Under the pieces are notes generated by a model that saw only the letters and a program-made list of their open reading frames with translations, did no database searches and was not told the DNA's origin. From positions 160,001-224,000 of the forward strand of contig JAVYPJ010000002.1 in the NCBI GenBank assembly GCA_038733315.1: a stretch of DNA of 64,000 nt, in the 5' to 3' direction. This DNA comes from Candidatus Aenigmatarchaeota archaeon (GTDB lineage: Archaea; Aenigmatarchaeota; Aenigmatarchaeia; CG10238-14; SpSt-28). Made by a program: the position numbers and the translations under genes. Of this stretch, positions 1,851-43,504 are shown in pieces. The number at the start of each line of letters is the position of its first letter. The stretch's first letter is position 1.

Positions 1851-1893
1851 TAAATAATAGAGTTAAGAAGCTAAAAAAAGATTTTTATATTTT

Positions 1894-2439
1894 TCAATAT
1901 GGTTCAAAACAATTAGAATTCTTTATTTTCTTTGCCAATCTCTCTAATTCCTTCTTTACTTCATCCACATTTTTACCTCCAGTACATATTATCTTTCCAC
2001 TTTTAAAAACTAAAAAAACTAATTTTGGTTCGTTTTTTCTATAAACTAAACCTGGAAATTGCTCCGGCTCAAACTCAGCACCCTCTAATTCCATTGCTAA
2101 GCAGTTCAAATTCACCTCGCCATCTAACTTTACAGAGGCTACAACGTTTTCAACAACCTTTTCTGATTTAGAGATATCTACACCAACACTCTTTAATCTT
2201 TCTAAAATAACCTTTAAGGCTTTATCAACATCTTCAATTCTTCTATTTCCGGTACATATTACTTTTCCACTTTCAAATATTAGAAAAGAGCACTTTGGAT
2301 CTTGCATTTTATAAACTAAACCTGGAAATTGTTCTGGTTCGAACTCTATATCTAAATACTTATTTAGCAGCTGGTTTATTGGAATTCTTTGGCTAAATGT
2401 TAAAGATACTACAATATTTTCTATAGTAACTTCCTCCAT
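1894..2439 (-). CDS. tbp: TATA-box binding protein
   Basis: Two repeats of NIV/NVVAS...EFEPEQFPGLVY...F.SGK.ICTG. Confidence 0.97.
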   Translation of the reverse strand: MEEVTIENIVVSLTFSQRIPINQLLNKYLDIEFEPEQFPGLVYKMQDPKCSFLIFESGKVICTGNRRIEDVDKALKVILERLKSVGVDISKSEKVVENVVASVKLDGEVNLNCLAMELEGAEFEPEQFPGLVYRKNEPKLVFLVFKSGKIICTGGKNVDEVKKELERLAKKIKNSNCFEPY

Positions 2440-2518
2440 TTAATAATAATTTACATTTAAAATATAAATTTTCAAGTTGATATAGATAAAGACTTTTTAA
2501 CCTTTACAATATTTTTAT

Positions 2519-3172
2519 ATGATAGTTGCTGGAATAGATGAAAACGGTAGAGGATGTATTATTGGACCCTTAGTTATTACTGTTTTTATTATAGATGATG
2601 AAAAAATAAATGAATTGGAAAAAATTGGAGTAAAGGATTCGAAAAAAATTCATCCGAAAAAAAGAAAAGAAATTTATGAGAAGTTAATTTCCTTAGGGGA
2701 AATACATCAAAAAATAATTAGCGCTATAGAGATAGATTACTATCTGAAGAATAAAAAAATAGGACTAAATAATTTAGAGATAATCAAAATAGCGGAATTA
2801 ATTAATGAAACTAATTCAGAAATTTATTATATAGATGCAATTTCTAATCCAATAAAATTTAAAGAAAATTTAAAGAAATTTGTTAAAAGAGATGTTGAAA
2901 TAATTGCAGAAAATAAAATGGATGAAAAAAACTTAGTTGTAGCAGCTGCTAGCATAATAGGAAAAGTTGTTAGAGATATGGAGATTGAAAAAATAAAAGA
3001 GCGCATTAATTTTGATTTTGGAAGTGGGTATGTTAGTGATGAAAGAACAAAAAAATTTATAGAATACGTTGTAAAAAAGGGGTTAAACTATGATTTTATT
3101 AGAAAATCGTGGATAACCTATGAGGAGGAAAACAAAAAAATAAAATTTAAGAAACTAATTGATTTTATATGA
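2519..3172 (+). CDS. rnhB: Ribonuclease HII
   Basis: GIDENGRG.IIGPLV, GVKDSKK, VAAASIIGKV.RD, GSGY.SD, C-terminal PIP-box-like KKLIDFI. Confidence 0.95.
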   Translation: MIVAGIDENGRGCIIGPLVITVFIIDDEKINELEKIGVKDSKKIHPKKRKEIYEKLISLGEIHQKIISAIEIDYYLKNKKIGLNNLEIIKIAELINETNSEIYYIDAISNPIKFKENLKKFVKRDVEIIAENKMDEKNLVVAAASIIGKVVRDMEIEKIKERINFDFGSGYVSDERTKKFIEYVVKKGLNYDFIRKSWITYEEENKKIKFKKLIDFI

Positions 3173-3414
3173 GAAAGGTATTAAATAAAAGTAAAATAAA
3201 GATTTTATTTTCAATTTTAGGAATTTTTTGCGCTCCAATAACTTTTTATTTTTATTATAACGACTTAATAGGATTATCCTTACCTTTTTTGATTTTCTTA
3301 ACTCTTTGCTATTTTCTAGGTAAAGAAAAGTTTTTTTGGAAGTTTTTCGAGGAAAATATATTAATTTTTTTATTTTTTTGGATTATAACTCTAAGTATTC
3401 TTATTAACCTTTAA
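3169..3414 (+). CDS. Small 3-TM membrane protein (possibly archaeal EMC6-like)
   Basis: Three hydrophobic segments, C-terminal FW...IFLFFWIITLSILINL; ATGA overlap with rnhB; family guess from pattern only. Confidence 0.5.
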   Translation: MRKVLNKSKIKILFSILGIFCAPITFYFYYNDLIGLSLPFLIFLTLCYFLGKEKFFWKFFEENILIFLFFWIITLSILINL

Positions 3415-3416
3415 AA

Positions 3417-3905
3417 ATGCCAGATATTATTACGCATCTAATAATTTCCTTAGCCTGCTCCTTTCCACTACTTTTATCTATTAAAGAATTAAAAAACAAA
3501 ATTATTTTTCTATTACTTGTATTCTTGTTTTCAATTTTACCAGATTTCGACTTCTTTTTTAATTCCCACAGAATCTTTACGCACTCTGTTTTCTTTATTT
3601 TTTCACTTTTATTAATATTTAGCGTTATAAATCTAAAAATCAGAAACCAAAAAATCCTAATTCTTCCTATTATAACGCTTTTGCATATTGTGTTGGATTT
3701 GTTTAATGGAAATGTTAGATTTCTATATCCATTTAGCAACGAAGAAATAACCTTAGAAAAATACTTTACGTATAATTTTCCATTTCTAAATGTAAAAACC
3801 GATTTAAATATAGAAGTCATTATAATATCTATATTTTTTATTTTTTGTTTCACTGTCTCTAAAAAATATATTAGGAATTCAAAGCAAAGTATTTCCTACT
3901 ATTAA
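3417..3905 (+). CDS. Membrane-bound metal-dependent hydrolase (YdjM/DUF457-like)
   Basis: TH, SILPDFD, HRIFTHS, HIVLD and LYPF motifs. Confidence 0.8.
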   Translation: MPDIITHLIISLACSFPLLLSIKELKNKIIFLLLVFLFSILPDFDFFFNSHRIFTHSVFFIFSLLLIFSVINLKIRNQKILILPIITLLHIVLDLFNGNVRFLYPFSNEEITLEKYFTYNFPFLNVKTDLNIEVIIISIFFIFCFTVSKKYIRNSKQSISYY

Positions 3906-4433
3906 TTTATACTCATCTTTTTCATCCAGCTCTTCCTTTATCCTTTCTTTAATCATTTTTTCTGGATTCATTAAAAATTTTATCCTATTTTTTAAATCCG
4001 TGAAATTTTCAAAAGGTTTTATTCTTCTTTCTTTTAATATTTCTTCTAAATGTTTTTTCCCTATGCCTCTTAACAATTCTAGGGCATGCATTTTTGGAGT
4101 TAACGGGCCTGCAATGTTAAATATTTTTATAATTCTGTTTTCGTTCTGCTTAATAAGCTCGTCTAATACTTCTTCTAAGACATTTTTTGCAATAGAAGAT
4201 AATTCGCTATATTTTATTTTTCTTATAATTCTTTGTGCCTTATCTCTTAAACCACTACCTATATATACAACTTCTTTAATATCTACCTTTACATTTGGTT
4301 TTAGGCTTATTTCTAATAAATTAAAATATTTATTTCCAATCCCATGTGCTATAGGAATTTTTATAGGACTACCGGGCTTTCCTGCTGGAAAATAATCTAA
4401 TATTATTATGTATTCGTCCTTCATTTTATACAA
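3879..4433 (-). CDS. DUF655 putative RNA-binding protein
   Basis: ILDY, GNKYFNLLE, HALELLRGIGKK helix-hairpin-helix; typical position after rpoF. Confidence 0.88.
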   Translation of the reverse strand: MYKMKDEYIIILDYFPAGKPGSPIKIPIAHGIGNKYFNLLEISLKPNVKVDIKEVVYIGSGLRDKAQRIIRKIKYSELSSIAKNVLEEVLDELIKQNENRIIKIFNIAGPLTPKMHALELLRGIGKKHLEEILKERRIKPFENFTDLKNRIKFLMNPEKMIKERIKEELDEKDEYKLIVGNTLL

Positions 4434-4438
4434 AAAAG

Positions 4439-4753
4439 TTAGATTTTATTAAGTATTTCTATTATTTTTTTTAGTTTTTCTTCACTAAAAAATCTTATGT
4501 TTTTTCCAAATAGAATGTTTAGATCTTCTATGCTTTCTGGAAGAAAATCCAAAATAAGTACAATTTCGTTATCTTTTAGGCCTAAATCCTTTAACTCCTT
4601 CTTAATTTCTTCTATTTTCTCTAAATTAACGTCTCTCTTCATAGAACTCTTTATATTTTCTATAATATCATTTAAAACGTTATTGGAAATTTCTCCCTTA
4701 AGTATTTCTAACGCTTCATATTTCGTAATATGTCTCTCTTCTAATACTTCCAT
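4439..4753 (-). CDS. rpo4: RNA polymerase subunit Rpo4 (F)
   Basis: ERHITKYEALEIL, ILDFLPESIEDL; L21e-rpoF-DUF655 synteny. Confidence 0.8.
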   Translation of the reverse strand: MEVLEERHITKYEALEILKGEISNNVLNDIIENIKSSMKRDVNLEKIEEIKKELKDLGLKDNEIVLILDFLPESIEDLNILFGKNIRFFSEEKLKKIIEILNKI

Positions 4754-4760
4754 AAAAAAA

Positions 4761-5030
4761 TTAAGATAATCTTTTTAAATGTTGTGGCTGAACTATAAGA
4801 GTTTTCTCTTTAAACCTATCAGATACCTTAACTAAATATGACCTCCCCCTTTTTCCAATAATTTTTCCTATCTTTCCATGAAATCTATGATGCGGGGCTC
4901 CATTGTAGCTGCTAGGATCTATCTTAATAACAACTTTTTCTCCATTTTCAAACTCTTGAAAAAATCTAGATATACCACTTTTTTCATACTTACTGCTTAA
5001 TTTTTTTCTGGATTTACTACCTTTAACCAT
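4761..5030 (-). CDS. rpl21e: 50S ribosomal protein L21e
   Basis: GEKVVIKIDPS..G.PH.RFHGK.G, PQHLK. Confidence 0.95.
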   Translation of the reverse strand: MVKGSKSRKKLSSKYEKSGISRFFQEFENGEKVVIKIDPSSYNGAPHHRFHGKIGKIIGKRGRSYLVKVSDRFKEKTLIVQPQHLKRLS

Positions 5031-5061
5031 TATAATTTATAATAATATTAAATTTAAATTT

Positions 5062-5559
5062 ATGAATTTGAACAATATAAAAGCAAGAATAGAAGCTATT
5101 CTTTTTGCATCCTCTAAGCCTATTACAGTTTTTCAGCTTTCTAAAATATTAAATGCTAACGAGAATGAAATCGAAGAAGCTTTAAACGAATTAATTAAAG
5201 AGTATGAAAGAGAAGATAAAGCTTTAGAAATAGTAGAAACTCCAGAAGGTTTTGAAATGAGGATAAAAGCAATTTATAGAAGTGATGCTTCCAAGGTAGC
5301 TGCATTTAGTGATTTAAGTTCTGGAGTTTTAAAAACACTAGCAATAATAATATATAAAAATCCTATTAAACAAAGTGATATAATAAAAATTCAAGGAAAC
5401 AGAGCATACGACTATATTAAAATCTTAGAGAAAAAAGGTTTAATAATTTCAAAAAAACATAAAAACACTAAAATATTGCTACCAAGCCAGAACTTAGAGA
5501 GATATTTTGGTATGAAAATAGAAGAGATAAAAAGACAAATAGAAAAATATATTCAATGA
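5062..5559 (+). CDS. scpB: SMC-Scp complex subunit ScpB
   Basis: IEAILFAS..P, LKTLAII.YKNPI.QSDI..IQG, two winged helices. Confidence 0.9.
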   Translation: MNLNNIKARIEAILFASSKPITVFQLSKILNANENEIEEALNELIKEYEREDKALEIVETPEGFEMRIKAIYRSDASKVAAFSDLSSGVLKTLAIIIYKNPIKQSDIIKIQGNRAYDYIKILEKKGLIISKKHKNTKILLPSQNLERYFGMKIEEIKRQIEKYIQ

Positions 5560-6275
5560 GAGTTTTGCTAACTATAAATCCATCTAAGAACATATTTAAA
5601 CAAATAAAATTAGCTAAAAAAATAGGATTTGATGGTGTTGAAATAGTGTTAGAAGATAAGGCTATGAAAACTGTTTTAAATAAAAAAAGTGATGTTAAAA
5701 ATCTTTTAGAAGAATTAAACATGTTTGCATCTTTTCATTTACCTTTTTGGCTTAACATACTTAATAAAGATGATTTTAACGAAATTCAAAATCTCTATGA
5801 AATAGCAAACTTTTTTAACACTTTTTGTGTTACTCACATAAATTCAGAAAATAAAAATGATTTAAAGATTTTCTCAAAAATTCTAAAAAAAATTCGAGAT
5901 AAAAAAATTTATTTTGAAAATTTATTTCAAAAAATAGATTTTTTAGAAAACTTTTCTAAGCTTAATGTTTTTTTAACTATCGACATTTCTCATATGCTCA
6001 CAATAAACACCTTTACAGAGTTTAGAAATTTTATAGTAAATAATAAACAAAAAATTCTTCATTTTCATATTTCAGATGCAAACGGTTTTTCCCATTCCCA
6101 TTTGCCTTTTGGTAAAGGGGTTTTACCTCTTAGAAGGATAGCAGAATTACTAATAAAAAATTTTAATGATAGAACTATATCTTTTGAAATTTTTGATACA
6201 GACTTTCCAGAAATAGATTTCGAATCTTCTTTTATAATTTTTAAAAATTTAATAGATAAATATGGAAAAGAGTGA
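5556..6275 (+). CDS. TIM-barrel sugar-phosphate isomerase/epimerase (AP endonuclease 2 family)
   Basis: GFDGVE, FHLP, FEN, TIDISH, HFHISD, HLPFGKG, FE metal ligands. Confidence 0.8.
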   Translation: MRVLLTINPSKNIFKQIKLAKKIGFDGVEIVLEDKAMKTVLNKKSDVKNLLEELNMFASFHLPFWLNILNKDDFNEIQNLYEIANFFNTFCVTHINSENKNDLKIFSKILKKIRDKKIYFENLFQKIDFLENFSKLNVFLTIDISHMLTINTFTEFRNFIVNNKQKILHFHISDANGFSHSHLPFGKGVLPLRRIAELLIKNFNDRTISFEIFDTDFPEIDFESSFIIFKNLIDKYGKE

Positions 6276-6957
6276 GATAATTAAAGTTTTTAGAGAAAAC
6301 AATTTAGATTTCATTAATTCTTTATATTCTAAATGTTTTGACGTTTTGATAAAAAAAGGCGAAGAGTTTTATTTTGTAAAAATATATAAAAACTTAAACT
6401 CTTTGACTTCTGAAGTTTGTCATGATTTAGCTAATTTAGAAAGTTTTTTTGAAGTAAATTCAATAATACTTTCCTTAAGAACATCTAGAAAAACATTAGG
6501 AAATCACATTTATTTAAGAAAAAATGTTAGAGTTTTAAATCTACAAACATTTTTAAAGTTCTTAGAAAATAAAGAGATTTCCATTTATAGATATGGAAAA
6601 GTTGTAATTAATATAGATTTTCAAAAAATGAAAAAACAAAGAGAAACTCTTGGCTATTCTTTAAAAACCTTAGCAAAAAAGCTTGATGTCAGTAAGAAAC
6701 ATATTTACGAAATAGAAAAGGGTATTAGAAAACCTTCTTATGAATTAGCCTTAAAATTAGAAAAAGTTTTAGGAACAAAACTAGTTTGTGAATTAGAAAG
6801 GAAAATTGAAGAAAAAGAAACCTTTAATTTTCTGAAGTTTTGCTCTATAAAGGGTATTAAAAAAGAGGGCAGGAAGTTTATAATTCCTAGAAAAGAAGAT
6901 AAGGCCTTAGAAGAAAGTAGAGAAATGTCTAATTTTTTAAACGTTGAAATATTATGA
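6262..6957 (+). CDS. Archaeal Cro/C1-type HTH transcriptional regulator
   Basis: CFDV..K N-terminal domain plus RETLGYSLKTLAKKLDVSKKHIYEIEKG.RKPS HTH. Confidence 0.8.
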   Translation: MEKSEIIKVFRENNLDFINSLYSKCFDVLIKKGEEFYFVKIYKNLNSLTSEVCHDLANLESFFEVNSIILSLRTSRKTLGNHIYLRKNVRVLNLQTFLKFLENKEISIYRYGKVVINIDFQKMKKQRETLGYSLKTLAKKLDVSKKHIYEIEKGIRKPSYELALKLEKVLGTKLVCELERKIEEKETFNFLKFCSIKGIKKEGRKFIIPRKEDKALEESREMSNFLNVEIL

Positions 6958-8174
6958 AAGTTAGAGGTTGGGTTGAAGAACTTAGAGATTTGGGAAAAAT
7001 AAAATTTATTATACTTCATACAGTAGAAGAAGATTACCAAATAACGTGTAAAAAAGAAATTACAGAAAACTTTGAAGAAATAGATAAAATTACATTACAA
7101 AGCGCCATAGAGGTTGAGGGAGATTTAATGGAGCATGGGATTTCTAAAAAACATAAAGAAATCTTGGCTAAAAAAATAAATATAATAAACATTTCTGAAA
7201 AAGTTTTGCCAATAGACCCAAGCAATAAAACTCCATATTCTCTAGACAAAAAATTAGATTGGAGATTTTTAGATTTTAGAAATCATAAAACAATAGCGAT
7301 AATCAAAATTCAAAATACCATTTTAAAATCTTTTAGGGAATTTTTTTCAAGCAAAGGTTTTATAGAGATTTTACCTCCGCTAATAATTTCTTCTGCAAGT
7401 GAAGGGGGTGCCGAATTATTTAAAGTTCAATACTTTGAAAAAGAAGCGTATTTAGCTCAAAGTCCTCAACTATATAAACAGATGGCTGCAATAAGTTTAG
7501 AAAAAGTTTTTTGCATAACTCCTATTTTTAGAGCTGAAAAGCATGATACGCCATTTCATATTAATCAAGTAACAAGCTTAGATATAGAAGTCGCTTTTGC
7601 AAATCACGAAGAAGTTATGAAATATTTAGAAGAATTCTTCGTATATGCTCTAGAAAACATTCAAAACAAAAATGAAAAAGAATTAAAAGAACTAAACATT
7701 AAACTAAATATTCCTCAACTACCATTAACAAGAATAAAGTATGAGGAAGCGATTCAGCTTTTAAATCTTAATTTTGGAGATGAAATAAAAAGAGTTCATG
7801 AAAAAACTCTTTGTGAAAAAATCGAAGAAGCAATTTTTATAACACATTTTCCTAAGGAGCATAGACCATTTTATACAATGATAAATGAAAGTGATAATAG
7901 AATTACAAATTCTTTCGATTTCCTTTATAAAGGCTTAGAATTAGCGAGCGGTTCTCAAAGAATTCATATCGCTGAAATGCTAAAAGCAAGAATTATTGAA
8001 AGCGGACTAGAACCAAAAGATTTTGAAAATTATATTAATGCATTTAAATATGGAGCACCTATGCATGCTGGCTGGGGATTAGGTTTAGAAAGATTCACAA
8101 TGAAAATTTGTAATTTAGAAAATATTAGAGAAGCTACTATGTGGCCAAGAGATAGAAATAGATTAATGCCTTAA
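6954..8174 (+). CDS. aspS: Aspartate-tRNA ligase (archaeal type)
   Basis: OB fold VRGWV..RDLG, EGGAELF, YLAQSPQLYKQ, FRAE, ELASGSQRIH, HAGWGLGLER. Confidence 0.92.
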   Translation: MKVRGWVEELRDLGKIKFIILHTVEEDYQITCKKEITENFEEIDKITLQSAIEVEGDLMEHGISKKHKEILAKKINIINISEKVLPIDPSNKTPYSLDKKLDWRFLDFRNHKTIAIIKIQNTILKSFREFFSSKGFIEILPPLIISSASEGGAELFKVQYFEKEAYLAQSPQLYKQMAAISLEKVFCITPIFRAEKHDTPFHINQVTSLDIEVAFANHEEVMKYLEEFFVYALENIQNKNEKELKELNIKLNIPQLPLTRIKYEEAIQLLNLNFGDEIKRVHEKTLCEKIEEAIFITHFPKEHRPFYTMINESDNRITNSFDFLYKGLELASGSQRIHIAEMLKARIIESGLEPKDFENYINAFKYGAPMHAGWGLGLERFTMKICNLENIREATMWPRDRNRLMP

Positions 8175-34184: not shown

Positions 34185-34781
34185 TTATCTTGCACCTTCT
34201 GCCTCTTTTTCTATCCTTTCTCTTTCTTTTAATGCATAGCTCTTAGAAATGTCGTTATTTGCAGCTGCAATAATTTCCTCAGCTAATAAATCTTTCATTT
34301 TCGCAAAACCTACTTTTCTTCTATAGCAGGAATTAACAATATTTCTTATAGCTATATCTACTCTTCTTTGAGGAGAAATTATTACTGCAGTTCTAGCTAT
34401 AATTCCACCTATTTGATAGGATAGAGGCTCTTCTAATGGGGCAGAATTTTCTATAGCTCTTACCAAAACCTCTATAGGATTTCTTTTAGTCTTACTCTCA
34501 ATTATTTCAAGAGTTTCTTTTATTATTTTAATTATTTTATCTGTTTTTCCAACACATCTAGCAGAAGAGATTAAATGTTTTTTACCTTTATGACCAGGAA
34601 CCATCATTCTAGTTATTAATCTTTCTACAATATTCATCTTCTCTTTACCAAATCTTATTTGACTATATCTCCCATATGTCCTAGGAATTACAATTGGGTT
34701 TAAATTAATGTATCTTTTTAATCCCGCATCCTTAACTTCTACATTCCAATCCCATCTACCAAATAACTTTAATTCGCTCAT
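34185..34781 (-). CDS. rps7: 30S ribosomal protein S7
   Basis: KLFGRW, IVERLI, NPIEVLVRAIENSAP.EE, SPQRRVDIA. Confidence 0.96.
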   Translation of the reverse strand: MSELKLFGRWDWNVEVKDAGLKRYINLNPIVIPRTYGRYSQIRFGKEKMNIVERLITRMMVPGHKGKKHLISSARCVGKTDKIIKIIKETLEIIESKTKRNPIEVLVRAIENSAPLEEPLSYQIGGIIARTAVIISPQRRVDIAIRNIVNSCYRRKVGFAKMKDLLAEEIIAAANNDISKSYALKERERIEKEAEGAR

Positions 34782-35203
34782 TATCTAGCAGGTTTTTGCT
34801 TTTTTCCTTTTCTAATAGCATCTAAGGAAACTCCATTAACAGCAATAACTCTATATCTAACACCCCACATACTTCCGACGGGACCTTTTTGGCCTCCACC
34901 TAAGGACTCTACTATAACTTCGTCATGTTCATTAATATAATTTATGCTTCCGCTCTTTGGAACAAAAGCTGTTAACTCTCTACCGTTTTTAATTAATTTA
35001 ACCCTAACACACTTTATTAATCCAGAGTGCGGCCTTTTTTGCTCAACAACTCTTTTCTCTATAACAATACCTCTAGCTTGGGGAGAACCTTCTAATGGAT
35101 CTGCTTTCCATAAACCTAAAACTCTAGATTTATACTTATAAGAGCTCCACCTAAACTTTTTTCTTCTTTTTATTAAAACTCTCGCAGCAAACTCGCCAGA
35201 CAT
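34781..35203 (-). CDS. rps12: 30S ribosomal protein S12
   Basis: DPLEGSPQARGIVIEK, KCVRVKLIKNG, TAFVP. Confidence 0.96.
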   Translation of the reverse strand: MSGEFAARVLIKRRKKFRWSSYKYKSRVLGLWKADPLEGSPQARGIVIEKRVVEQKRPHSGLIKCVRVKLIKNGRELTAFVPKSGSINYINEHDEVIVESLGGGQKGPVGSMWGVRYRVIAVNGVSLDAIRKGKKQKPAR

Positions 35204-35227: not shown

Positions 35228-35629
35228 TTAAATAATTTTTATATCATCAATTTTATACATTCTTTCCAAAAAAGTTTTATATAACCTAAGCTTTCTTTTG
35301 TTTCTTCCGTATACAATACCTTTATAAACTTTATTTATTCCTATTTCAATAATTTTATTGCCGTTATGAGTTTTTATTCTAGCAAAATTAACAAAAGGTA
35401 TTAGCTCTTTAAGAAATTCAAAAACATTAGAAGAATACTCTAAGATTTTTATCTCTTTATTTAAAACTTTTCTCAATATTCCAATCAGCGGTAATATTTT
35501 AGCCCTCTGATTTTTTTCAACAACTATATAAACCACATTTTCAAACATTACAACATCTTTAACGTTAACATTAGTTAAATTCTCGACTAAATTTATTATT
35601 CTAATTAGCTCGTTATCAAATATTCTCAT
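35228..35629 (-). CDS. nusA: Archaeal NusA (KH domains)
   Basis: rpoA2-L30e-nusA-S12 synteny; ILEYS, KGIVYGRN. Confidence 0.8.
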   Translation of the reverse strand: MRIFDNELIRIINLVENLTNVNVKDVVMFENVVYIVVEKNQRAKILPLIGILRKVLNKEIKILEYSSNVFEFLKELIPFVNFARIKTHNGNKIIEIGINKVYKGIVYGRNKRKLRLYKTFLERMYKIDDIKII

Positions 35630-35886
35630 TTTCTAACCACTAAAACACTTATTGGAAAAGGCTTACCTAAAGCTATCCCTAACTCTATGCTATTCATTTC
35701 TGTTTCTATCACTTTGCTCTTATCCATAACTGAACTTAAGATATCTCCTTTCATATTCTCTGGTATATCTCTAGTCACTATAACTAATTTTGGTTCTTTT
35801 AACTTTAAATACTTTAAGCACTTTCTAAATCCATAAATCACGTTTCCTTTCTTTAATTCCTCTTTTATTTCACTTATCCTTTCCAT
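35626..35886 (-). CDS. rpl30e: 50S ribosomal protein L30e
   Basis: GNVIYG, SIELGIALGKPFPISVL. Confidence 0.9.
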   Translation of the reverse strand: MERISEIKEELKKGNVIYGFRKCLKYLKLKEPKLVIVTRDIPENMKGDILSSVMDKSKVIETEMNSIELGIALGKPFPISVLVVRK

Positions 35887-36997
35887 GTTTTAAACCAACT
35901 TCAACTCTTCCAGTTCCTATTGGCGCAACATTTCCAACCATAACATTTTCAAACATACCTCTAAACTCATCTCTTAAATTTTTTATCCCAGCCTCTATTA
36001 AATGTTTTGTAGTTTCCTCAAAACCAGCTCTAGCTAGAATACTCACTTTTCTCCCAGCAACACCATATCTACCTATTGGCATTATATCACCACTAAAACA
36101 CATAGTATCTACAATTAAAGATAAAAATCTTATGTTAACGTCTAAACCTTGTTGCTGCAAAGTTCTATATATTTCAAGAATTAACAAATTTCTTGCCGCC
36201 TCTATTCCAAAAACTTCTTTAACTTCGTGAGGATTGTTCGAATATGTATGAGTAATATCGACCCAAGGATATCTTATAACTTCTTTTAAATTGCTACCTT
36301 GCGTTTGAATTACCCACCTATTACCATCTTTCGTGACTATAGCAGCTTCTATTCCTTTAATACCTCTTATTGGAGTTTTAATGATTCTATCTCTTAAAAT
36401 TCTAAGCTCCTTAAACTCATATTCTTTCTTAGGCACAAGCACTATTTTTCCTCTACTTTTTTCGCACTCACAACTCTTGACTTTTTCCTTAAGTTTTTTA
36501 TATAGTTCTTCAAAATCATTCTTGTCATAAGGTATTACTTCCAAAGTGAATTCGCTCAAATTTATAACTACGCTCGCCAAATCCTCTAACTTTTTTTCTA
36601 TAATTTCATTAGCAATTTCATGCGCTTTTTCTTCTGTATTATATTCATTCTTCAAATAAATTGTCATAGAAGGAGAAGAAATTTCCTTTCTTGCATCAAA
36701 AAGCTCTATTAATCTTGGTAAACCTAAGGTTATCTTTAAACCAACAGTTCCAGCTAAGTGATAAACTCTCATAGTAGCTTGAGTTGCAGGTTCGCTAATA
36801 CATTGTGCAGCTAATATTCCTATGCTTTCATTCGGCTCAACTAAGCTCTTTATATATTCTTCATAAACTCTAAGTATTAATTTATCTTTTTTGTCCTCAC
36901 TCAAATTGAATTTCTTTACAGCATCGTCTATCTTTTTCTTCAAATTTTCTGGCAAGCTTTCGTATATTTTATAGATTTCTTGCGATTTCATATACAT
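35870..36997 (-). CDS. rpo1C: RNA polymerase subunit Rpo1C (A'')
   Basis: GILAAQCISEPATQATMR, TLGLPRLIE, FGIEAARN, LARAGFE, PIGTG. Confidence 0.96.
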   Translation of the reverse strand: MYMKSQEIYKIYESLPENLKKKIDDAVKKFNLSEDKKDKLILRVYEEYIKSLVEPNESIGILAAQCISEPATQATMRVYHLAGTVGLKITLGLPRLIELFDARKEISSPSMTIYLKNEYNTEEKAHEIANEIIEKKLEDLASVVINLSEFTLEVIPYDKNDFEELYKKLKEKVKSCECEKSRGKIVLVPKKEYEFKELRILRDRIIKTPIRGIKGIEAAIVTKDGNRWVIQTQGSNLKEVIRYPWVDITHTYSNNPHEVKEVFGIEAARNLLILEIYRTLQQQGLDVNIRFLSLIVDTMCFSGDIMPIGRYGVAGRKVSILARAGFEETTKHLIEAGIKNLRDEFRGMFENVMVGNVAPIGTGRVEVGLKHGKDK

Positions 36998-39900
36998 CTA
37001 TATCTCCACCTTCAACTTTATATGGATCTATTCCATCATCTAAGGCAATGAACTGAACTATATTATCATTAGCATCTCTAACAGTTAAATCTGTTTCTAC
37101 TCTTAAATCATTTAGAGCTCCTATAAACCTTCTTTCTAAATAACCACTCTGTCTAGTTTTAACTCCCTTATCCATTAGCGCTTCTCTCTGATTCATTATA
37201 TCAAAAAATGTCTCTAATGGTTTTAATCCGTAGAAATATCCATTAGAAATAAATCCCTTGGCCTCTAACCTTAAATCACCTCTTTCAAAGTGTGGGAAAG
37301 CCCTATTATAATATCCAATGCTTATTCTTTTACCCATAACTTTTGCTTGACCTATTAAACCGCTTATCTGGAAGAAGTTTACAAAGCTGCCTCTAGCACC
37401 ACTAGCAGCAAGAATAAAAAATTCTTTATCTTTTTTATCTTTAACCTCCTCTAATAATATTTCGTTAATCTTAGTTAATTTTTCATTAATTACTCTGTTT
37501 ATTAATTCTTCTAGCGTTTCTTCGCTTGTTCTTCCAATTAATAGCTTTAACTCGTTTTTATTAAACTTGTCTATTAACTCTTCAACTTTTTTATTTGCCT
37601 CTTTGAGATGCTCTTTTATTTTCTTTCTAGATTCTTCACTTATAGAATATTCAATAGTAGAAATGCTAAATCCACGCATCATTAGATAATAATTACTTAG
37701 CCTAGATATTTTTTCTATAAATTCCTTAGTATACTTTGGACCATATAATTGTAATATTTTATTCAATAGCTTTCCATTATCTCCAACCGCTCTACTATCT
37801 ATTGCACCACTAATTAACTTACCATTTTGTATTTTAACTATTCCTTCTTTATCGGCTTCCCAGCTTAAAGAGGATAATCTATTTTTGAATTCCATAGATA
37901 TGTTTGGTAATAGTAAGCTAAATATTTCTTTTCCGCTAAGCTTCTCCTTTCTTGGAATGTCTACCGATAAATCAACATTCCTTATTAGCTGCACAACATC
38001 TTTATAATCCAAAAGGTTTTCTCCATATGTTAACAAAAAGAGTCCAGAAATTTGATCATGTAATAAAGCGATTATTGGTCCACCATATCTCGGACTTCTT
38101 ATATGCTTTTCAACTCCCATCAAAATTTCTGCTTCAGCCATAGCTTCTACTGATTGTAAAACATGCAAATTCATTTCATCGCCATCGAAATCTGCATTAT
38201 AAGGAATTGTTGCACATAGATTTATTCTAAATGTTTTTCCATTTGTAATTCTAACTTTATGCGCCATAATGCTCATTCTATGTAAACTTGGTTGTCTATT
38301 GAACAAAACTATATCACCATTTTTCAAATGCCTTTCAACTATCCAACCTACACTTAACATTTTTGCTATTTCATTCTTATTCTTTTCGGTTATTTTTATC
38401 CTAATACCATCTGGTCTTATAACATAATTCGCTCCCGGCCACTCGTTTCCATTAGAAACTAGCTTCCTTATTTCTTCTATGTTTTCTTCATTAACAATAG
38501 TAGGAACAGTTAATTCTTTTGCTATCTCCTTAGGTACTCCTACTTCATTAATTTCTAAGAAAGGATCTGGAGAAACAACACTTCTAGCTGAGAAGTTTGT
38601 TCTTTTTCCTAATAAATTGTATCTGAATCTTCCCTCTTTTGTTTCTAATCTTTGAGCTAACGCTTTTAATACTCTTCCGCTTCTATGTCTTGCAGCTGGA
38701 ATTCCACTCAATTCATTATCGAAATATGTAGCAACGTGATATTGTAATAATTCCCATAAGTCCTCTATAACTAATTGTGGTGCTCCTAGTTCTATTGCCT
38801 CTCTCAATTTTTCATTTACTCTTATTATATCAGCTAATTTATGCGTTAAATCATCTTCACTTCTCTCTCCAGTTTCTAAGACTATAGAGGGTCTAATTAT
38901 TGGTGGAGAAACTAACAATAAACTTAATACAAAGCTTGTGGGATCAACCTTTATTCCTATTTTTTTAACGTCTTCTCTATCTATGTTAAGCAAAAATTCT
39001 CTTATCTCTTCTGGATTTAATTTTCTATCGTTAATCTTAAAAGTATATGGTCTAACAAATGTTACAGAAGGTTGCTTAGCCTTGCAATGCGGACAAACAG
39101 ATGGCAAAGATTTTAATACCTCTTTTAGTTTTGGTTTTTCCTCTTTACTCAAAAGTTTTCCGCAAGATTTGCAAAAAACTCTTAAAAGTATGTATATGTA
39201 CTTTATAAATAAAGGATGTAAAACAGGTTTAGCCAATTCCATATGTCCAAAATGACCGACACAATTAGTAAAATTACCAAAACATGTTCTGCATCTAACT
39301 CCGGGATCTATTGTTCCCATTCTTGGATCCATTATTCCACCCTCTATAGGAAATCCTTCTTCATCATAAACATCTATCTTAGAAATTTTTATTGGCGCGT
39401 ACTTCTTTATATCTTCAACAGTAAAAACTCTAAACTCTATGGCATCTATTTTTCTAAGAGTTTTGTTAATTATAAGTTTTGGATATAAATGCATTGAAAT
39501 TAATTCTTGGAATAATAGTTTGAACGCATATGACATTTCTATTTCATATACTTCGCTATCATCTTTACAATAAATACAATAATGTTTGTTTTTAGAAAAG
39601 TCTTTAATCGCTATTAAACCACACTTTGCACAAACTGGAACTAAAATCTTGTCACTATCAAACCTTTCCTTTAGTGTTAGTGCTGCTCCATGAGCTAAAA
39701 GAACATCTTTTTCCATCTCACCCAATCTTAATCCACCTTCCTTAGATTTTCCTTCAGTAGGTTGCCTTGTTAATAATGTTACAGGTCCTCTAGATCTTGC
39801 AAACCATTTATTTGAAACCAAATGATGTAACCTATAATAATAAATGTTTCCTATCAATATTTTTACTTCATACTTTCTACCAGTTACTGGATCATACATC

Positions 39901-41252
39901 TCTTCCCTTCCACTTTCTTCAAATCCATACTTTTTAAGTAATTCTACTATTTCCTTTTCTCTATCTCCCTCAAAAGCAGTTCCATCCATTATCTTTCCTT
40001 CTAAGGCAGCTATCTTACCAAACAAAATTTCGAATAAATGACCTAAACTCATTCTCGATGGAATACTATGCGGATTAAAAATTATGTCTGGAACTATTCC
40101 GCTAGAAGTAAACGGCATATCTTCATGCCTAATCGTAAGTCCAACTACTCCCTTTTGTCCATGTCTAGATGCAAATTTATCGCCTATTTCTGGAATTTTT
40201 AGCTCTCTTAAAACTATTTTTGCCAACTTATTACCTTCTGAAGAAGAGGTAATAAAAACTCTATCAACTATGCCCTGCTCACCACCTCTAACTTCTACAG
40301 AAGTTTCTCTCATGTTTTCTAAGGATACTATAAATTTATCTACTTTACCTAAGAATCTTAATGGCGACATTTTCCCAACTAAAACATCTCCCTCTTTAAC
40401 TTCAGTTTCTACCGAAACTATACCATCTATATCTAAATTTTTATAAGCTTCCTCACCCCTATAACCCTTTACTCCTGGCTGAGGTATACCTATAATTTCT
40501 TCTTGCCCACTAGCAAATTTTTTTTCTTCAGTTTCATAAGTTCTAAACATATAACTTCTAAACAATCCTCTTTCTATGCTTGACTTATTCATTACTATAG
40601 CGTCTTGCATTGTATAAGGATGAGAAATTATAGCAATTACAACATTACAACCATTTGGATGTGTATCAAATGGAAAAACTTTATAAGAAAAAGTTTGTAT
40701 GAGAGGAACCTGGGAATATAACATAACATGCCAAAATGAATAAGTTCTGCTTTTATATGCTAACGTTGGTATTCCTAAGGCTTGACCGCTCATTCTTGCT
40801 CCAAAATTAATTCTATCTCCTCTAGTATGTTCAACAAAAGGTATTAACGAAGCATGCAAACCTAACATAACCGCAGGATGCACCTCAAAATGCGTATAAT
40901 TATCCTTCTTTTCCCCATCTATTTCTATACTTATTTTTGTGATTTCCTCTTCTTCTGCATCTAAAAACTCTATTATACCATTCTTAAGTAAATCGCTAAA
41001 ACTGAAATTCCCATCTTTTATGTACTTCTCTAATTCATCAATTTTTTCAGAATTGATAAGCGGTCTTCTTATTCTTCCGCTATCTGTGGAAATTCTTACT
41101 TCATTCTTATAATCTAAAATACTTACATTTACCTGATAAGAGATTTCTCCCTTTCTTCTTGCACTTCTTATTTTTTCCACAACCTTTTCAGGTTTTGTTG
41201 TATATCCAAGAAGTTCTCCATCTAGAAATACTTTATACTTTTTAGCCTTCAT
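36969..41252 (-). CDS. Fused RNA polymerase subunits Rpo2C (B') + Rpo1N (A')
   Basis: First ~595 aa are B' (GDKFASRHGQKG, RQPTEGKSKEGGLRLGEME, SYAFKLLFQEL); remainder is A' (CRTC...GHFGH, LLGKR.NFSARSV, NRQPSLH, NADFDGD). Confidence 0.95.
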   Translation of the reverse strand: MKAKKYKVFLDGELLGYTTKPEKVVEKIRSARRKGEISYQVNVSILDYKNEVRISTDSGRIRRPLINSEKIDELEKYIKDGNFSFSDLLKNGIIEFLDAEEEEITKISIEIDGEKKDNYTHFEVHPAVMLGLHASLIPFVEHTRGDRINFGARMSGQALGIPTLAYKSRTYSFWHVMLYSQVPLIQTFSYKVFPFDTHPNGCNVVIAIISHPYTMQDAIVMNKSSIERGLFRSYMFRTYETEEKKFASGQEEIIGIPQPGVKGYRGEEAYKNLDIDGIVSVETEVKEGDVLVGKMSPLRFLGKVDKFIVSLENMRETSVEVRGGEQGIVDRVFITSSSEGNKLAKIVLRELKIPEIGDKFASRHGQKGVVGLTIRHEDMPFTSSGIVPDIIFNPHSIPSRMSLGHLFEILFGKIAALEGKIMDGTAFEGDREKEIVELLKKYGFEESGREEMYDPVTGRKYEVKILIGNIYYYRLHHLVSNKWFARSRGPVTLLTRQPTEGKSKEGGLRLGEMEKDVLLAHGAALTLKERFDSDKILVPVCAKCGLIAIKDFSKNKHYCIYCKDDSEVYEIEMSYAFKLLFQELISMHLYPKLIINKTLRKIDAIEFRVFTVEDIKKYAPIKISKIDVYDEEGFPIEGGIMDPRMGTIDPGVRCRTCFGNFTNCVGHFGHMELAKPVLHPLFIKYIYILLRVFCKSCGKLLSKEEKPKLKEVLKSLPSVCPHCKAKQPSVTFVRPYTFKINDRKLNPEEIREFLLNIDREDVKKIGIKVDPTSFVLSLLLVSPPIIRPSIVLETGERSEDDLTHKLADIIRVNEKLREAIELGAPQLVIEDLWELLQYHVATYFDNELSGIPAARHRSGRVLKALAQRLETKEGRFRYNLLGKRTNFSARSVVSPDPFLEINEVGVPKEIAKELTVPTIVNEENIEEIRKLVSNGNEWPGANYVIRPDGIRIKITEKNKNEIAKMLSVGWIVERHLKNGDIVLFNRQPSLHRMSIMAHKVRITNGKTFRINLCATIPYNADFDGDEMNLHVLQSVEAMAEAEILMGVEKHIRSPRYGGPIIALLHDQISGLFLLTYGENLLDYKDVVQLIRNVDLSVDIPRKEKLSGKEIFSLLLPNISMEFKNRLSSLSWEADKEGIVKIQNGKLISGAIDSRAVGDNGKLLNKILQLYGPKYTKEFIEKISRLSNYYLMMRGFSISTIEYSISEESRKKIKEHLKEANKKVEELIDKFNKNELKLLIGRTSEETLEELINRVINEKLTKINEILLEEVKDKKDKEFFILAASGARGSFVNFFQISGLIGQAKVMGKRISIGYYNRAFPHFERGDLRLEAKGFISNGYFYGLKPLETFFDIMNQREALMDKGVKTRQSGYLERRFIGALNDLRVETDLTVRDANDNIVQFIALDDGIDPYKVEGGDIDVYEIARNL

Positions 41253-42769
41253 AATTCTATTTTATAACTAATTTCATCTTCTATTAGTTTTTTTATTTTT
41301 TCTCTTTCCTCATCACTAACTCCAAAAGTTATTTCGCTAAAAATAGCTAGGTGTTTTCTCAAACCAATAGTTGGACCCTCTGGAGTTTCTACTAAGCACA
41401 ATTTCCCAAAATGAGTAGGATGCAACTCTCTAGCTTCAAAATGTTCTTGAGTAGATTTTAATGGTGAGCTAACCACTCTTAAATGTGTTAAAGTTTTGTT
41501 GAAGTTCGTTCTCTCTAATCTTTGAGAAGTTCCGGTCCTATTTCCAATCCATGTTCCCACAGCCATTACAGATTGCACTATATTACTAACAAAATTTGCA
41601 TCTATTACAGCATTTATTGGTGGCAAGCTACCTCTTTTAGCAAGTTTATGATAATTAAAAATCATCCTATTTATAACCCCCTGCTTACCTTTTAAAATTG
41701 TTCTAAATAGAATTTCAAAAAGTTCTCCAGCTAATCTAACTCTTTTGTTTGCATAATGATCTATATCATCTTCCTTATCCTTACCTAACGCAACACCAAT
41801 CATTCTTTCAACTATTTTTGCCAAAAATATAGCTTTGTTTATCCTATCTTTTTTTGTTTGACCTAAGTGCAACAGGAAATACTTATCCAAAATCATTTCG
41901 GCCCTTTCTTTTCTTAGCTTCTTTTGTGGTATTTTAAGATACTCACCGATTTTATCCAAAGCCTCTTCTTGAGTCGTAATAGGATATTCATAGAAATTAA
42001 TTACAAATTCTTCTTGAATTTCCTTATCTTCCGAAATCAATTCTAATAATTTTTCATCATTTTCAATTCCCAATGCTTTAAATAAAACGACCAAAGGAAA
42101 ATCTCTTAAAGCAGAAAAAGTGGAAAGTAAAATTCCGTTTCTCTTTAATTCAAAAAGGTGTTTAACAATATAACCCTCTTTTTCTGAATTTACTCTACAA
42201 TTTACTATAACATTATTCTGATCTACCCTTCTTATTATTGGTTTATTGTTCGCCAATTCTTCTATTAGAATTAAATTTCTTTCAACTCCATTAATTATAA
42301 AATATCCACCAGGATCATCAGGATCTTCCTTAGCTGCCATCAATTCTTCTCTGCTCATTCTAGATAGCGGACATATTACAGATTTTACCATTACCGGTAA
42401 TTGCCCAAAATAAACTTCTATAGGATCGCTTTTTATTCCGCTAACTTCTGTAACAATTTTTATATACATAGGTGCCGAGTATGTTAACCCCCTTATTCTT
42501 GCTTCAAATGGTAATAATGGATTTGTTTCGCTTCTCACAACTCCATCGGCTTCTACAAAAGTTGGATAATTACTTACTCTACCATCTATAAAATGTATTT
42601 TTACATCACCTATTTCAGGAATCTCTGGCTCTATAGTACCTATATTTTTTATTAACTTAGAAAATCTTCTCTGCACGAAATCATTATATGAATCTATTTG
42701 ATACTTAACTAATCCAAACTCCTCAATATATTTTTTTAATAATGTTGTTATTAGCAAATTCTGGTTCAT
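41249..42769 (-). CDS. rpo2N: RNA polymerase subunit Rpo2N (B'')
   Basis: QIDSYNDF, EARIRGLTYSAP, DPGGYFIING, DHYANKR, ETPEG..IGL. Confidence 0.96.
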   Translation of the reverse strand: MNQNLLITTLLKKYIEEFGLVKYQIDSYNDFVQRRFSKLIKNIGTIEPEIPEIGDVKIHFIDGRVSNYPTFVEADGVVRSETNPLLPFEARIRGLTYSAPMYIKIVTEVSGIKSDPIEVYFGQLPVMVKSVICPLSRMSREELMAAKEDPDDPGGYFIINGVERNLILIEELANNKPIIRRVDQNNVIVNCRVNSEKEGYIVKHLFELKRNGILLSTFSALRDFPLVVLFKALGIENDEKLLELISEDKEIQEEFVINFYEYPITTQEEALDKIGEYLKIPQKKLRKERAEMILDKYFLLHLGQTKKDRINKAIFLAKIVERMIGVALGKDKEDDIDHYANKRVRLAGELFEILFRTILKGKQGVINRMIFNYHKLAKRGSLPPINAVIDANFVSNIVQSVMAVGTWIGNRTGTSQRLERTNFNKTLTHLRVVSSPLKSTQEHFEARELHPTHFGKLCLVETPEGPTIGLRKHLAIFSEITFGVSDEEREKIKKLIEDEISYKIEL

Positions 42770-43011
42770 CTTTCTACTACAACCCTATAATATATTGATT
42801 TTAAACCTAATATATCTCTTTCTATTTTTATAACATCCCCTACTTTTGCTCCTAAAGCTTTAACTGCTGGATCATCTATAAATATCTTAGGAAGTTGTGA
42901 TAATTTAGCTCCAAGTTTTTTTAGTAATTCATTCTTTTCTTCTTCCGAAAGTATAGAGTACTTTGGTGATAAAAAATAGTTAAAAACAATTTCTTTGTTT
43001 TTCTCTTCCAT
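42766..43011 (-). CDS. rpo5: RNA polymerase subunit Rpo5 (H)
   Basis: QLPKI..DDP....GAKVGDVIKIER, YYRVV. Confidence 0.95.
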   Translation of the reverse strand: MEEKNKEIVFNYFLSPKYSILSEEEKNELLKKLGAKLSQLPKIFIDDPAVKALGAKVGDVIKIERDILGLKSIYYRVVVER

Positions 43012-43078: not shown

Positions 43079-43504
43079 ATGAAAGGTATAAGTCCAATAC
43101 TAGCAACGGTAATTTTAATCGCAATAACAGTAGGAACAGCGCTTTTATTATGGGCGTTTGTACAGCAGTACATTTCAGCACATACATCCAGCATTCCAGA
43201 AATATGTTTAAATACAGTAGATTTTAAATGCAGGTATGAGAATGAGAATATAACATTTTGCATGTTTCAGCATTTATCAGGAAAAAAACTTAATGATGTT
43301 ACTATAAACTTTATATGTAAAAACCCTCAAAAAAGTAGTGATGAAAAAATTGGAATTGTACCTGTTGGGAGTTTAAAATCTATTTCGACAAACTTTAGCT
43401 GCCCACTTCAAGAATTATCTATTTTCGTTATAGGTAGATGCGAAGGATTTAAAAATAATCAAACAATTTATAGATGCGATGGTGTAAATTGTGTATTTGA
43501 TTAA
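43079..43504 (+). CDS. Type IV pilin/archaellin with canonical class III signal peptide
   Basis: MKG|ISPILATVILIAITV. Confidence 0.85.
   Translation: MKGISPILATVILIAITVGTALLLWAFVQQYISAHTSSIPEICLNTVDFKCRYENENITFCMFQHLSGKKLNDVTINFICKNPQKSSDEKIGIVPVGSLKSISTNFSCPLQELSIFVIGRCEGFKNNQTIYRCDGVNCVFD

Follow-up and report, generated by a model that had tools for sequence, protein, structure and literature searches.

An in-frame fusion of RNA polymerase subunits B' and A' in Aenigmatarchaeota, with apparently recurrent origins within one order

Archaea normally keep the genes for subunits B' (Rpo2C) and A' (Rpo1N) of RNA polymerase (RNAP) separate. In a stretch of 64,000 nucleotides from the genome of a Candidatus Aenigmatarchaeota archaeon (GenBank assembly GCA_038733315.1, contig JAVYPJ010000002.1, positions 160,001 to 224,000; hereafter the window, in whose own numbering all positions are given), the listing of open reading frames (ORFs) has one frame of 1427 amino acids (aa) with an ATG start, on the minus strand at 36969..41252, that carries both. 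The questions raised by this locus are whether the frame is a genuine gene, whether it is made as one chain, and how, and how often, such a join came about. The account that best covers the evidence, and that we hold very likely, is that of a sole-copy gene specifying a single B'A' chain, in which a join that has recurred among these archaea acts as a near-neutral tether within the clamp of the enzyme.

The translation of the ORF has no internal stop, reading ELISMHLYPKLIINKTLRKIDAIEFRVF over the junction and YNADFDGDEMNLH farther along, and Pfam places on it the Rpb2 domains 4, 5, 6 and 7 (residues 8-594), followed by the Rpb1 domains 1 to 5 in order (600-1407). The NCBIfam profile of archaeal rpoB', TIGR03670, is matched from position 1 to 597 of 599 by ORF residues 8-597, and that of subunit A', NF006336, from position 5 to 875 of 883 by residues 598-1425; since both profiles are matched end to end, the two parts are complete and abut without a linker. 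The B' part occupies 39462..41252 (minus strand, residues 1-597) and the A' part 36969..39461 (minus strand, residues 598-1427 plus the stop), the latter with the catalytic motif NADFDGD at residues 1019-1025 (38178-38198), and profiles, domains and motif position agree with the first-pass annotation, which had described a whole B' followed by A' with this motif in one ORF. NF006336 scores 1037.2 bits, above its curated cut-off of 819, and TIGR03670 782.9 bits, below its cut-off of 811, a shortfall that reflects divergence, the match being end to end; a further A' model, TIGR02390, falls just below its own (1009.9 against 1042.55). The models of fused bacterial proteins are far under their cut-offs, each matching in four stretches (NF007172, Helicobacter type, 305.8 against 5372 bits; NF011417, Wolbachia type, 294 against 4632 bits), so the protein of the window is an analogue of these proteins and not a member of their families. 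A chance ORF was rejected, given 1427 open codons with family matches for both halves at E = 0 to 1e-236, and so was an alternative genetic code, which is not needed for a frame that is open under table 11.

At the junction, the C-terminus of the second-largest subunit runs in frame into the N-terminus of the largest, residue 597 being followed by residue 598, with the boundary between N597 (39462-39464) and K598 (39459-39461), at 39461/39462 of the window. The stretch around it, SMHLYPKLIINKTLRKIDAIEF (39432..39497, minus strand, residues 586-607), is without a stop, a start codon or a Shine-Dalgarno (SD) motif; in the window DNA, the frame between the conserved Met588 of B' and Met640 contains neither ATG nor GTG nor TTG, and the junction lacks a long homopolymer. 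The boundary lies inside the range, near 39450-39480, for which the absence of a stop, of a Met at the start of A' and of a long homopolymer had been claimed, and the DNA agrees.

The fused protein has exactly one match in the host genome (733 kb in 7 contigs, 94% complete), so that, at this completeness, the fused gene is the only source of two essential subunits; as the sole copy of an essential gene, it was rejected as a pseudogene. The span 39420-39520 was looked for in the Logan contigs of four runs, in which minor variants might not show, leaving out the possible source run (X1). One contig each of runs X2, X5 and X9 (studies P1, P2 and P3) bridges it with substitutions only, and the contigs of X10 do not cover the junction; the mapping that had been suggested for this span gives three crossings from three studies, all free of indels. 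The runs listed as holding the sequence are all hot-spring metagenomes, and there is no RNA run among them.

The named homologues belong to 'Candidatus Aenigmatarchaeota/Aenigmarchaeota archaeon', of the DPANN phylum in question, and in 26 of 40 tool-chosen relatives an uninterrupted frame of about 1430 aa spans the full query, at 53-84% identity; 13 have two genes and one has no match. When the junction was cut out in every genome of the order with both sides on one contig, 105 of the 118 genomes could be classified, 45 as fused, 51 as split with B' and A' in different frames, and nine as split by one or two stop codons with the frame unchanged. The other 13 comprise one with its junction masked by N (G108), one in which it meets a contig end (G044), six with fragments only (G114, G107, G063, G057, G051 and G111) and five without a match; G108 (locus L053) has an open frame of 1395 aa but was rejected as a fused case and left unclassified, its junction being the masked N run. 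The first-pass annotation had envisaged that close relatives might all have separate genes; 45 of the 105 classified genomes of the order are fused. Outside the order, a phylum-wide search (371 genomes, 355 with a match) gave at least 16 full-length and at least two contig-truncated uninterrupted matches among the other 253 genomes. The state is uniform in shallow clades, with 7/7 genomes fused in genus g1 (the host genome included), 9/9 in g2 and 3/3 in g20, and it is mixed within the genera g15, g17 and g18. The fusion is real, inherited and without an added linker.

The split relatives bear on how the join arises. In 60/60 split genomes of the order, B' ends in ...YPK.(V/I)..EE(stop) and A' begins with M...IEF, the two genes overlapping (ATGA, TAATG) or sitting a few nucleotides apart; an example from the nine same-frame cases is ...KED(stop)MLVERIEF, and six of the nine have an ATG 0-2 codons past the stop. 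Fused junctions read ...YPKLVINDEGKISKIEF or ...SGEEMRVKRIEF, the window's own being ...YPKLIINKTLRKIDAIEF. The span from YPK to IEF is 10-12 residues in the 27 fused junctions printed and 10-13 for the summed tails of 13 split ones; nothing is inserted at the fused junctions. Because stop and start abut or overlap in the split relatives and no residues are added, small indels or stop loss would explain the join, and an indel of 1-4 nucleotides (nt), or the loss of a stop codon, would be enough to merge the two frames. With different frames in 51 of the 60 split genomes of the order, indels would be the more frequent of these two routes. At one locus (L051, genome G116) the B'/A' intergenic region has the stop/SD stretch GAGGAGTAATAT twice, 21 nt apart (KEE(stop) ... 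RRSNM), a small duplication that suggests slippage-type indels at the junction.

The signals for a separate start of A' were counted in a fixed interval upstream of the IEF anchor. An in-frame ATG was present in 60/60 split and 14/45 fused genomes, and a 5-mer SD-like motif in 48/60 and 7/45, respectively; genus g1, including the host genome, had neither (0/7 for both). The position of the old A' start itself is still ATG in 11/45 fused genes of the order. With ATG and SD-like motif gone in the lineage of the window, A' would be producible only as part of the fusion, and for the same reason the fusion of this lineage would not be recent. We infer that a single polypeptide of about 162 kDa is made from the ORF, the B' C-terminus running straight into the A' N-terminus; that this protein exists and joins the active enzyme is suggested by its sole copy, its conservation and the lost internal start signals.

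Recurrence was read from trees of the B' and A' parts. A first tree of 56 loci, with 10 residues on each side of the junction removed (IQ-TREE, quick search, LG+G4), needs 12 changes between the fused and split states, and seven on the 38 rows from the tool-chosen relatives; on the 56-row set, an approximately unbiased (AU) test rejects a single clade of the 34 fused rows (difference in log-likelihood 2241, p = 2e-52). The order-wide tree has 107 rows of B' and A', 94 of the order and 13 of the outgroup, the latter picked for interesting-looking architecture and not counted for their states; another twelve loci, partial, broken or masked, were left out (L112 is without B'). With 45 fused and 49 split rows, this tree requires at least 13 changes, of which 12 are imposed by branches that have a Shimodaira-Hasegawa-like approximate likelihood ratio test (SH-aLRT) value of at least 95. 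Outgroup-rooted parsimony gives 12-13 fusions and 0-1 fissions with a split root, and 8-12 fusions and 1-5 fissions with a fused one; any most-parsimonious history read from these sequences would include at least eight independent fusions in one order, and the join appears to have arisen many times in Aenigmatarchaeota. The window's clade (genera g1 and g3, eight rows) is all fused and monophyletic with support 100, and would go back to one fusion, old enough for the A' start codon and SD motif to decay. The first-pass annotation had proposed an independent archaeal fusion giving a B''/B'A'/A'' core (the slash standing for a gene boundary), useful as a lineage marker. The gene set stands, and the single event gives way to the at least eight fusions that parsimony would place in the order; recurrence makes the B'-A' fusion a poor marker of deep lineages, consistent only within shallow clades (g1, g2 and g20). 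In the RNAP gene trees, the first and the order-wide one, the family f1 is not one clade, g1 and g3 standing apart from g2 and g4, which are found among rows of f2 and f3; a long-branch effect, gene transfer or a taxonomy issue could account for this non-monophyly.

As to the enzyme itself, the best sequence match to residues 470-800 in the PDB is 3qqc_A (E 4e-59), which is colinear with residues 538-800 through the junction, where the alignment is in one piece (MHLYPKLIINKTLRKIDAIEF against MVIRPKLNLSEGGKVIGSIEF). According to its description (PMC3094117), residues 1053-1115 of B, 3-318 of A' and 334-371 of A'' from Pyrococcus furiosus were fused via short G/A/S linkers, and the engineered clamp was soluble, bound Spt4/5 and crystallised, with a structure at 3.3 A. 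Since this construct folds and aligns colinearly, the termini of B' and A' lie next to each other in the clamp, where joining them directly is tolerated. An AlphaFold2 model of residues 500-885 (31-row alignment) was poor overall, with a mean predicted local distance difference test (pLDDT) of 59 and a predicted template modelling score (pTM) of 0.50; at the junction it has a strand (90-97), a four-residue turn, KTLR, and a strand (102-110), with block pLDDT of 79 and 69, and its top Foldseek match was again 3qqc_A, at a template modelling (TM) score of 0.53 and a root-mean-square deviation of 11 A. For the geometry of the link on an archaeal RNAP structure, raised when the locus was first described, the colinear alignment is favourable and the model weak. 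Both termini would belong to the clamp, side by side, and the peptide bond would tether chains already packed together, enforcing 1:1 synthesis and co-assembly and being otherwise close to neutral; a near-neutral tether would let the state flip readily. The functional effect is probably small, that of a covalent clamp tether enforcing 1:1 synthesis. The enzyme of Helicobacter pylori reportedly tolerates the separation of its fused subunits.

Other explanations of the locus have been considered against this background. An assembly or sequencing error of 1-2 nt at an ordinary overlapping stop and start could have given a false fused ORF, and in 13/13 split relatives with printed junctions the difference from the fused ones is one of frame and a few bases, which one indel error could mimic. 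Neither an ATG nor a stop is left at the junction, however, the three independent contigs from other runs carry no indel, and the frame is open in 7/7 genomes of the genus and in 45 genomes of the order, at 52-84% identity, so we regard the probability of such an artefact as negligible. It is also quite improbable that the fused ORF gives two proteins, by internal initiation or by proteolysis at the junction, and with them B' and A' as the customary separate chains. One can conceive of a second product in those fused genes of the order that keep the ATG of the old A' start (the 11 of 45) or a 5-mer SD-like motif (the seven of 45), but in the window and its genus the region upstream of the A' part has neither an in-frame ATG or GTG nor an SD-like motif, with a TTG in 1/7 genomes of the genus; the next Met is residue 640, within the first conserved A' domain, and there is no conserved cleavage motif at the junction, where the joining residues vary among relatives.

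The history of the join can also be read the other way round, as a single ancient fusion, placed at the root of the order or phylum and later undone by many fissions independently of one another. The counts of changes lack direction, a fused root permits up to five fissions, and nine genomes are split by stops alone, six of them with the nearby ATG, a state one point mutation away from a fusion that retains the Met. Even with a fused root, however, at least eight fusions are needed, and in 51/60 split genomes the genes stand in different frames and have full SD and ATG signals, like those of other archaea; the joining residues differ among the fused clades, several of which keep the Met as the scar of a recent join, and the single fused clade is rejected by the AU test, which makes the ancient fusion a distinctly improbable history. 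Rather less remote, if still unlikely, is an adaptive fusion, in which a covalent B'-A' tether was selected in reduced, often thermophilic genomes for clamp stability, stoichiometry or assembly. The fused state has been kept over about 40% sequence divergence in the clade of g1 and g3 and in g2, it has been extended to B''B'A' in some families, and the runs that hold the sequence come from hot springs; on the other hand, close relatives within one genus (g15, g17 and g18) differ in state, and this explanation overlaps with that of a recurrent, near-neutral join, differing from it on selection alone.

Several points nevertheless tell against the recurrent, near-neutral join of a single B'A' chain. 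The tree is that of RNAP genes, from a quick search under the single-matrix LG+G4 model, and not a species tree; the number of changes would be overestimated if rpo genes had been transferred or had recombined, or through long-branch effects. Equal-cost parsimony does not determine which way the changes went, and fewer fusions would suffice were fission much the easier step. It is conceivable that translation starts internally or that the protein is cleaved afterwards, the single chain being read from sequence; the AlphaFold2 model is poor, adding little to the sequence alignment and giving weak support, and near-neutrality is itself deduced from the frequent flipping of the state.

The surroundings of the fused gene are those of an RNAP operon, on the minus strand throughout. 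It begins with rpoH (Rpo5; 42766..43011, Pfam RNA_pol_Rpb5_C, E 4.8e-21) and continues with rpoB'' (Rpo2N; 41249..42769, 506 aa), a separate gene with 460 bits to NF007175 (cut-off 355) and the Pfam Rpb2 domains 1-3, whose stop shares 4 nt with the start of the fused gene. On the other side, with a 29-nt overlap at the end of the fused ORF, lies rpoA'' (Rpo1C; 35870..36997, 375 aa), also separate, which matches TIGR02389 at E 7.2e-114, with 380.6 bits below the cut-off of 420.65, and carries Pfam Rpb1 domain 5. That B'' and A'' flank the fused gene as ORFs of their own had been claimed from the letters alone, and it holds. Next come L30e (35626-35886, Pfam Ribosomal_L7Ae), an unnamed ORF of 133 aa (35228-35629), S12 (34781-35203, Pfam Ribosom_S12_S23) and S7 (34185-34781, Pfam Ribosomal_S7), and the order rpoH, B'', B'A', A'', L30e, 133-aa ORF, S12, S7 is canonical for archaea. 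The 133-aa ORF has no Pfam match at E <= 0.001; its slot, between L30e and S12, is usually that of archaeal NusA. Adjoining the operon on the plus strand, an ORF of 141 aa (43079-43504) has a weak match to the archaeal type IV pilin N-terminal domain (23.3 bits, below the cut-off of 25.2).

The window's arrangement is one of several in the phylum. Twenty further loci, chosen for odd-looking rows of the search and hence not a fair sample, were cut out, and three loci (L041 of G119, L055 of G195 and L056 of G171) carry a B''B'A' triple fusion of 1916-1934 aa, followed in L041 by a separate A'' and without an A'' match in the stretches of L055 and L056 that were examined. At least 10 uninterrupted frames of 1827-1941 aa were present in the phylum-wide search, and the homologues include proteins of about 1911-1924 aa that have the full set of Rpb2 and Rpb1 domains. 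In genomes such as G144, G132, G139, G165 and G214, an unsplit B is followed by one or more stop codons and then by A' in the same frame, and in another (G228, locus L043, oriented coordinates 506-7381) an unsplit B of 1102 aa, a TAG and an unsplit A (A' and A'', 1188 aa) stand in one frame, so that the loss of a single stop codon would give a one-chain B-A enzyme of about 2291 aa. Five architectures are found in Aenigmatarchaeota, namely B''/B'/A'/A'', B''/B'A'/A'', B/A'/A'', B''B'A'/A'' and B/A.

Beyond the phylum, residues 440-760 were searched against 1.84 billion representatives at 50% identity, and among the best 150 matches examined three span the junction and carry Rpb1 domains. One (P0022) is a fused protein of 1428 aa, also among the named-homologue matches, and another (P0162, 1665 aa) is truncated. 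The third (P0151) has in one chain of 2214 aa a whole Rpb2 (domains 1, 3, 6 and 7) and a whole Rpb1 (domains 1, 2, 3 and 5), with 34% identity to the query across the junction; it is a singleton on a Logan contig of 18.7 kb, and its nearest junction-spanning relatives are the triple fusions of Aenigmatarchaeota, at 32% identity. Two other matches (P0131 and P0253) were rejected as B'-A' fusions, as Pfam gives Rpb2 domains only.

The closest analogues are bacterial. As two reports state, rpoB and rpoC are fused in Helicobacteraceae and Wolbachia (PMC7483510), and likewise in H. pylori, H. felis and Wolinella (PMC9696931), and on this point the first-pass annotation, which had named an equivalent bacterial fusion, is supported by these reports. 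In both domains adjacent operon genes are concerned and the C-terminus of the second-largest subunit is joined to the N-terminus of the largest, whereas the window's fusion is archaeal, unites the fragments B' and A' with B'' and A'' remaining separate, and belongs to an event that appears to recur many times within one order. The rClamp engineered from P. furiosus (3QQC; Martinez-Rucobo et al. 2011, PMC3094117) also has the C-terminal part of B followed by the A' N-terminus in a single chain, but, with its G/A/S linkers and the extra piece of A'', it is an artificial domain construct 436 residues long, and not a whole, natural or catalytic subunit. For DPANN, Da Cunha et al. (2017, PMC5484517) describe a secondary re-fusion of A' and A'' in Pacearchaeota; there, too, large RNAP subunits are repartitioned in archaea that evolve fast and have small genomes, and G228 likewise has an unsplit A, but that re-fusion rejoins parts of one ancestral subunit, whereas B'-A' joins two different ones. 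No description of an archaeal B'-A' fusion was found in the literature searched, with supplements and subscription journals outside its scope. The sources checked, two on archaeal RNAP evolution, one on DPANN comparative genomics covering Aenigmarchaeota, and Da Cunha et al. (2017), contain no mention of it in the portions of text consulted (10.64898/2026.06.17.729505, PMC5484517, PMC13257274 and PMC8407392), and in PMC13257274 'fusion' and 'fused' have 0 occurrences; as far as searched, the archaeal B'-A' fusion is undescribed.

A practical consequence concerns annotation. NCBI labels the homologues of about 1425 aa simply 'subunit A'', and since only the A' model NF006336 passes its cut-off, B' would look missing in automatic naming. 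The hazard that had been foreseen for marker-gene pipelines is borne out by this name and by TIGR03670 and TIGR02390 falling below their cut-offs, and a mislabelled fused protein can bias concatenated alignments as well as estimates of completeness from marker genes. In the window, the scores of B', A' and A'' are all just under the cut-offs of their TIGRFAM equivalogs, and marker sets built on these models may score the lineage as lacking all three.

Splits and fusions of RNAP genes have been regarded as rare and have served as phylogenetic characters; Da Cunha et al. (2017, PMC5484517) argue from the split of A and call such events rare. With at least eight B'-A' fusions predicted in one order and five architectures in the phylum, such characters can be strongly homoplastic. 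The fused protein of the window would be a natural full-length counterpart of the tether engineered in the P. furiosus clamp, and could supply single-chain B'-A' modules for recombinant work on archaeal RNAP. We tentatively raise the possibility, which we do not consider the likelier one, that Aenigmatarchaeota are a natural experiment in dividing the RNAP catalytic core almost freely into polypeptides. If so, the split and fusion states of RNAP would not be the rare genomic changes assumed in rooting and grouping the archaea, and a covalent clamp tether may benefit assembly or stability in organisms with minimal proteostasis.

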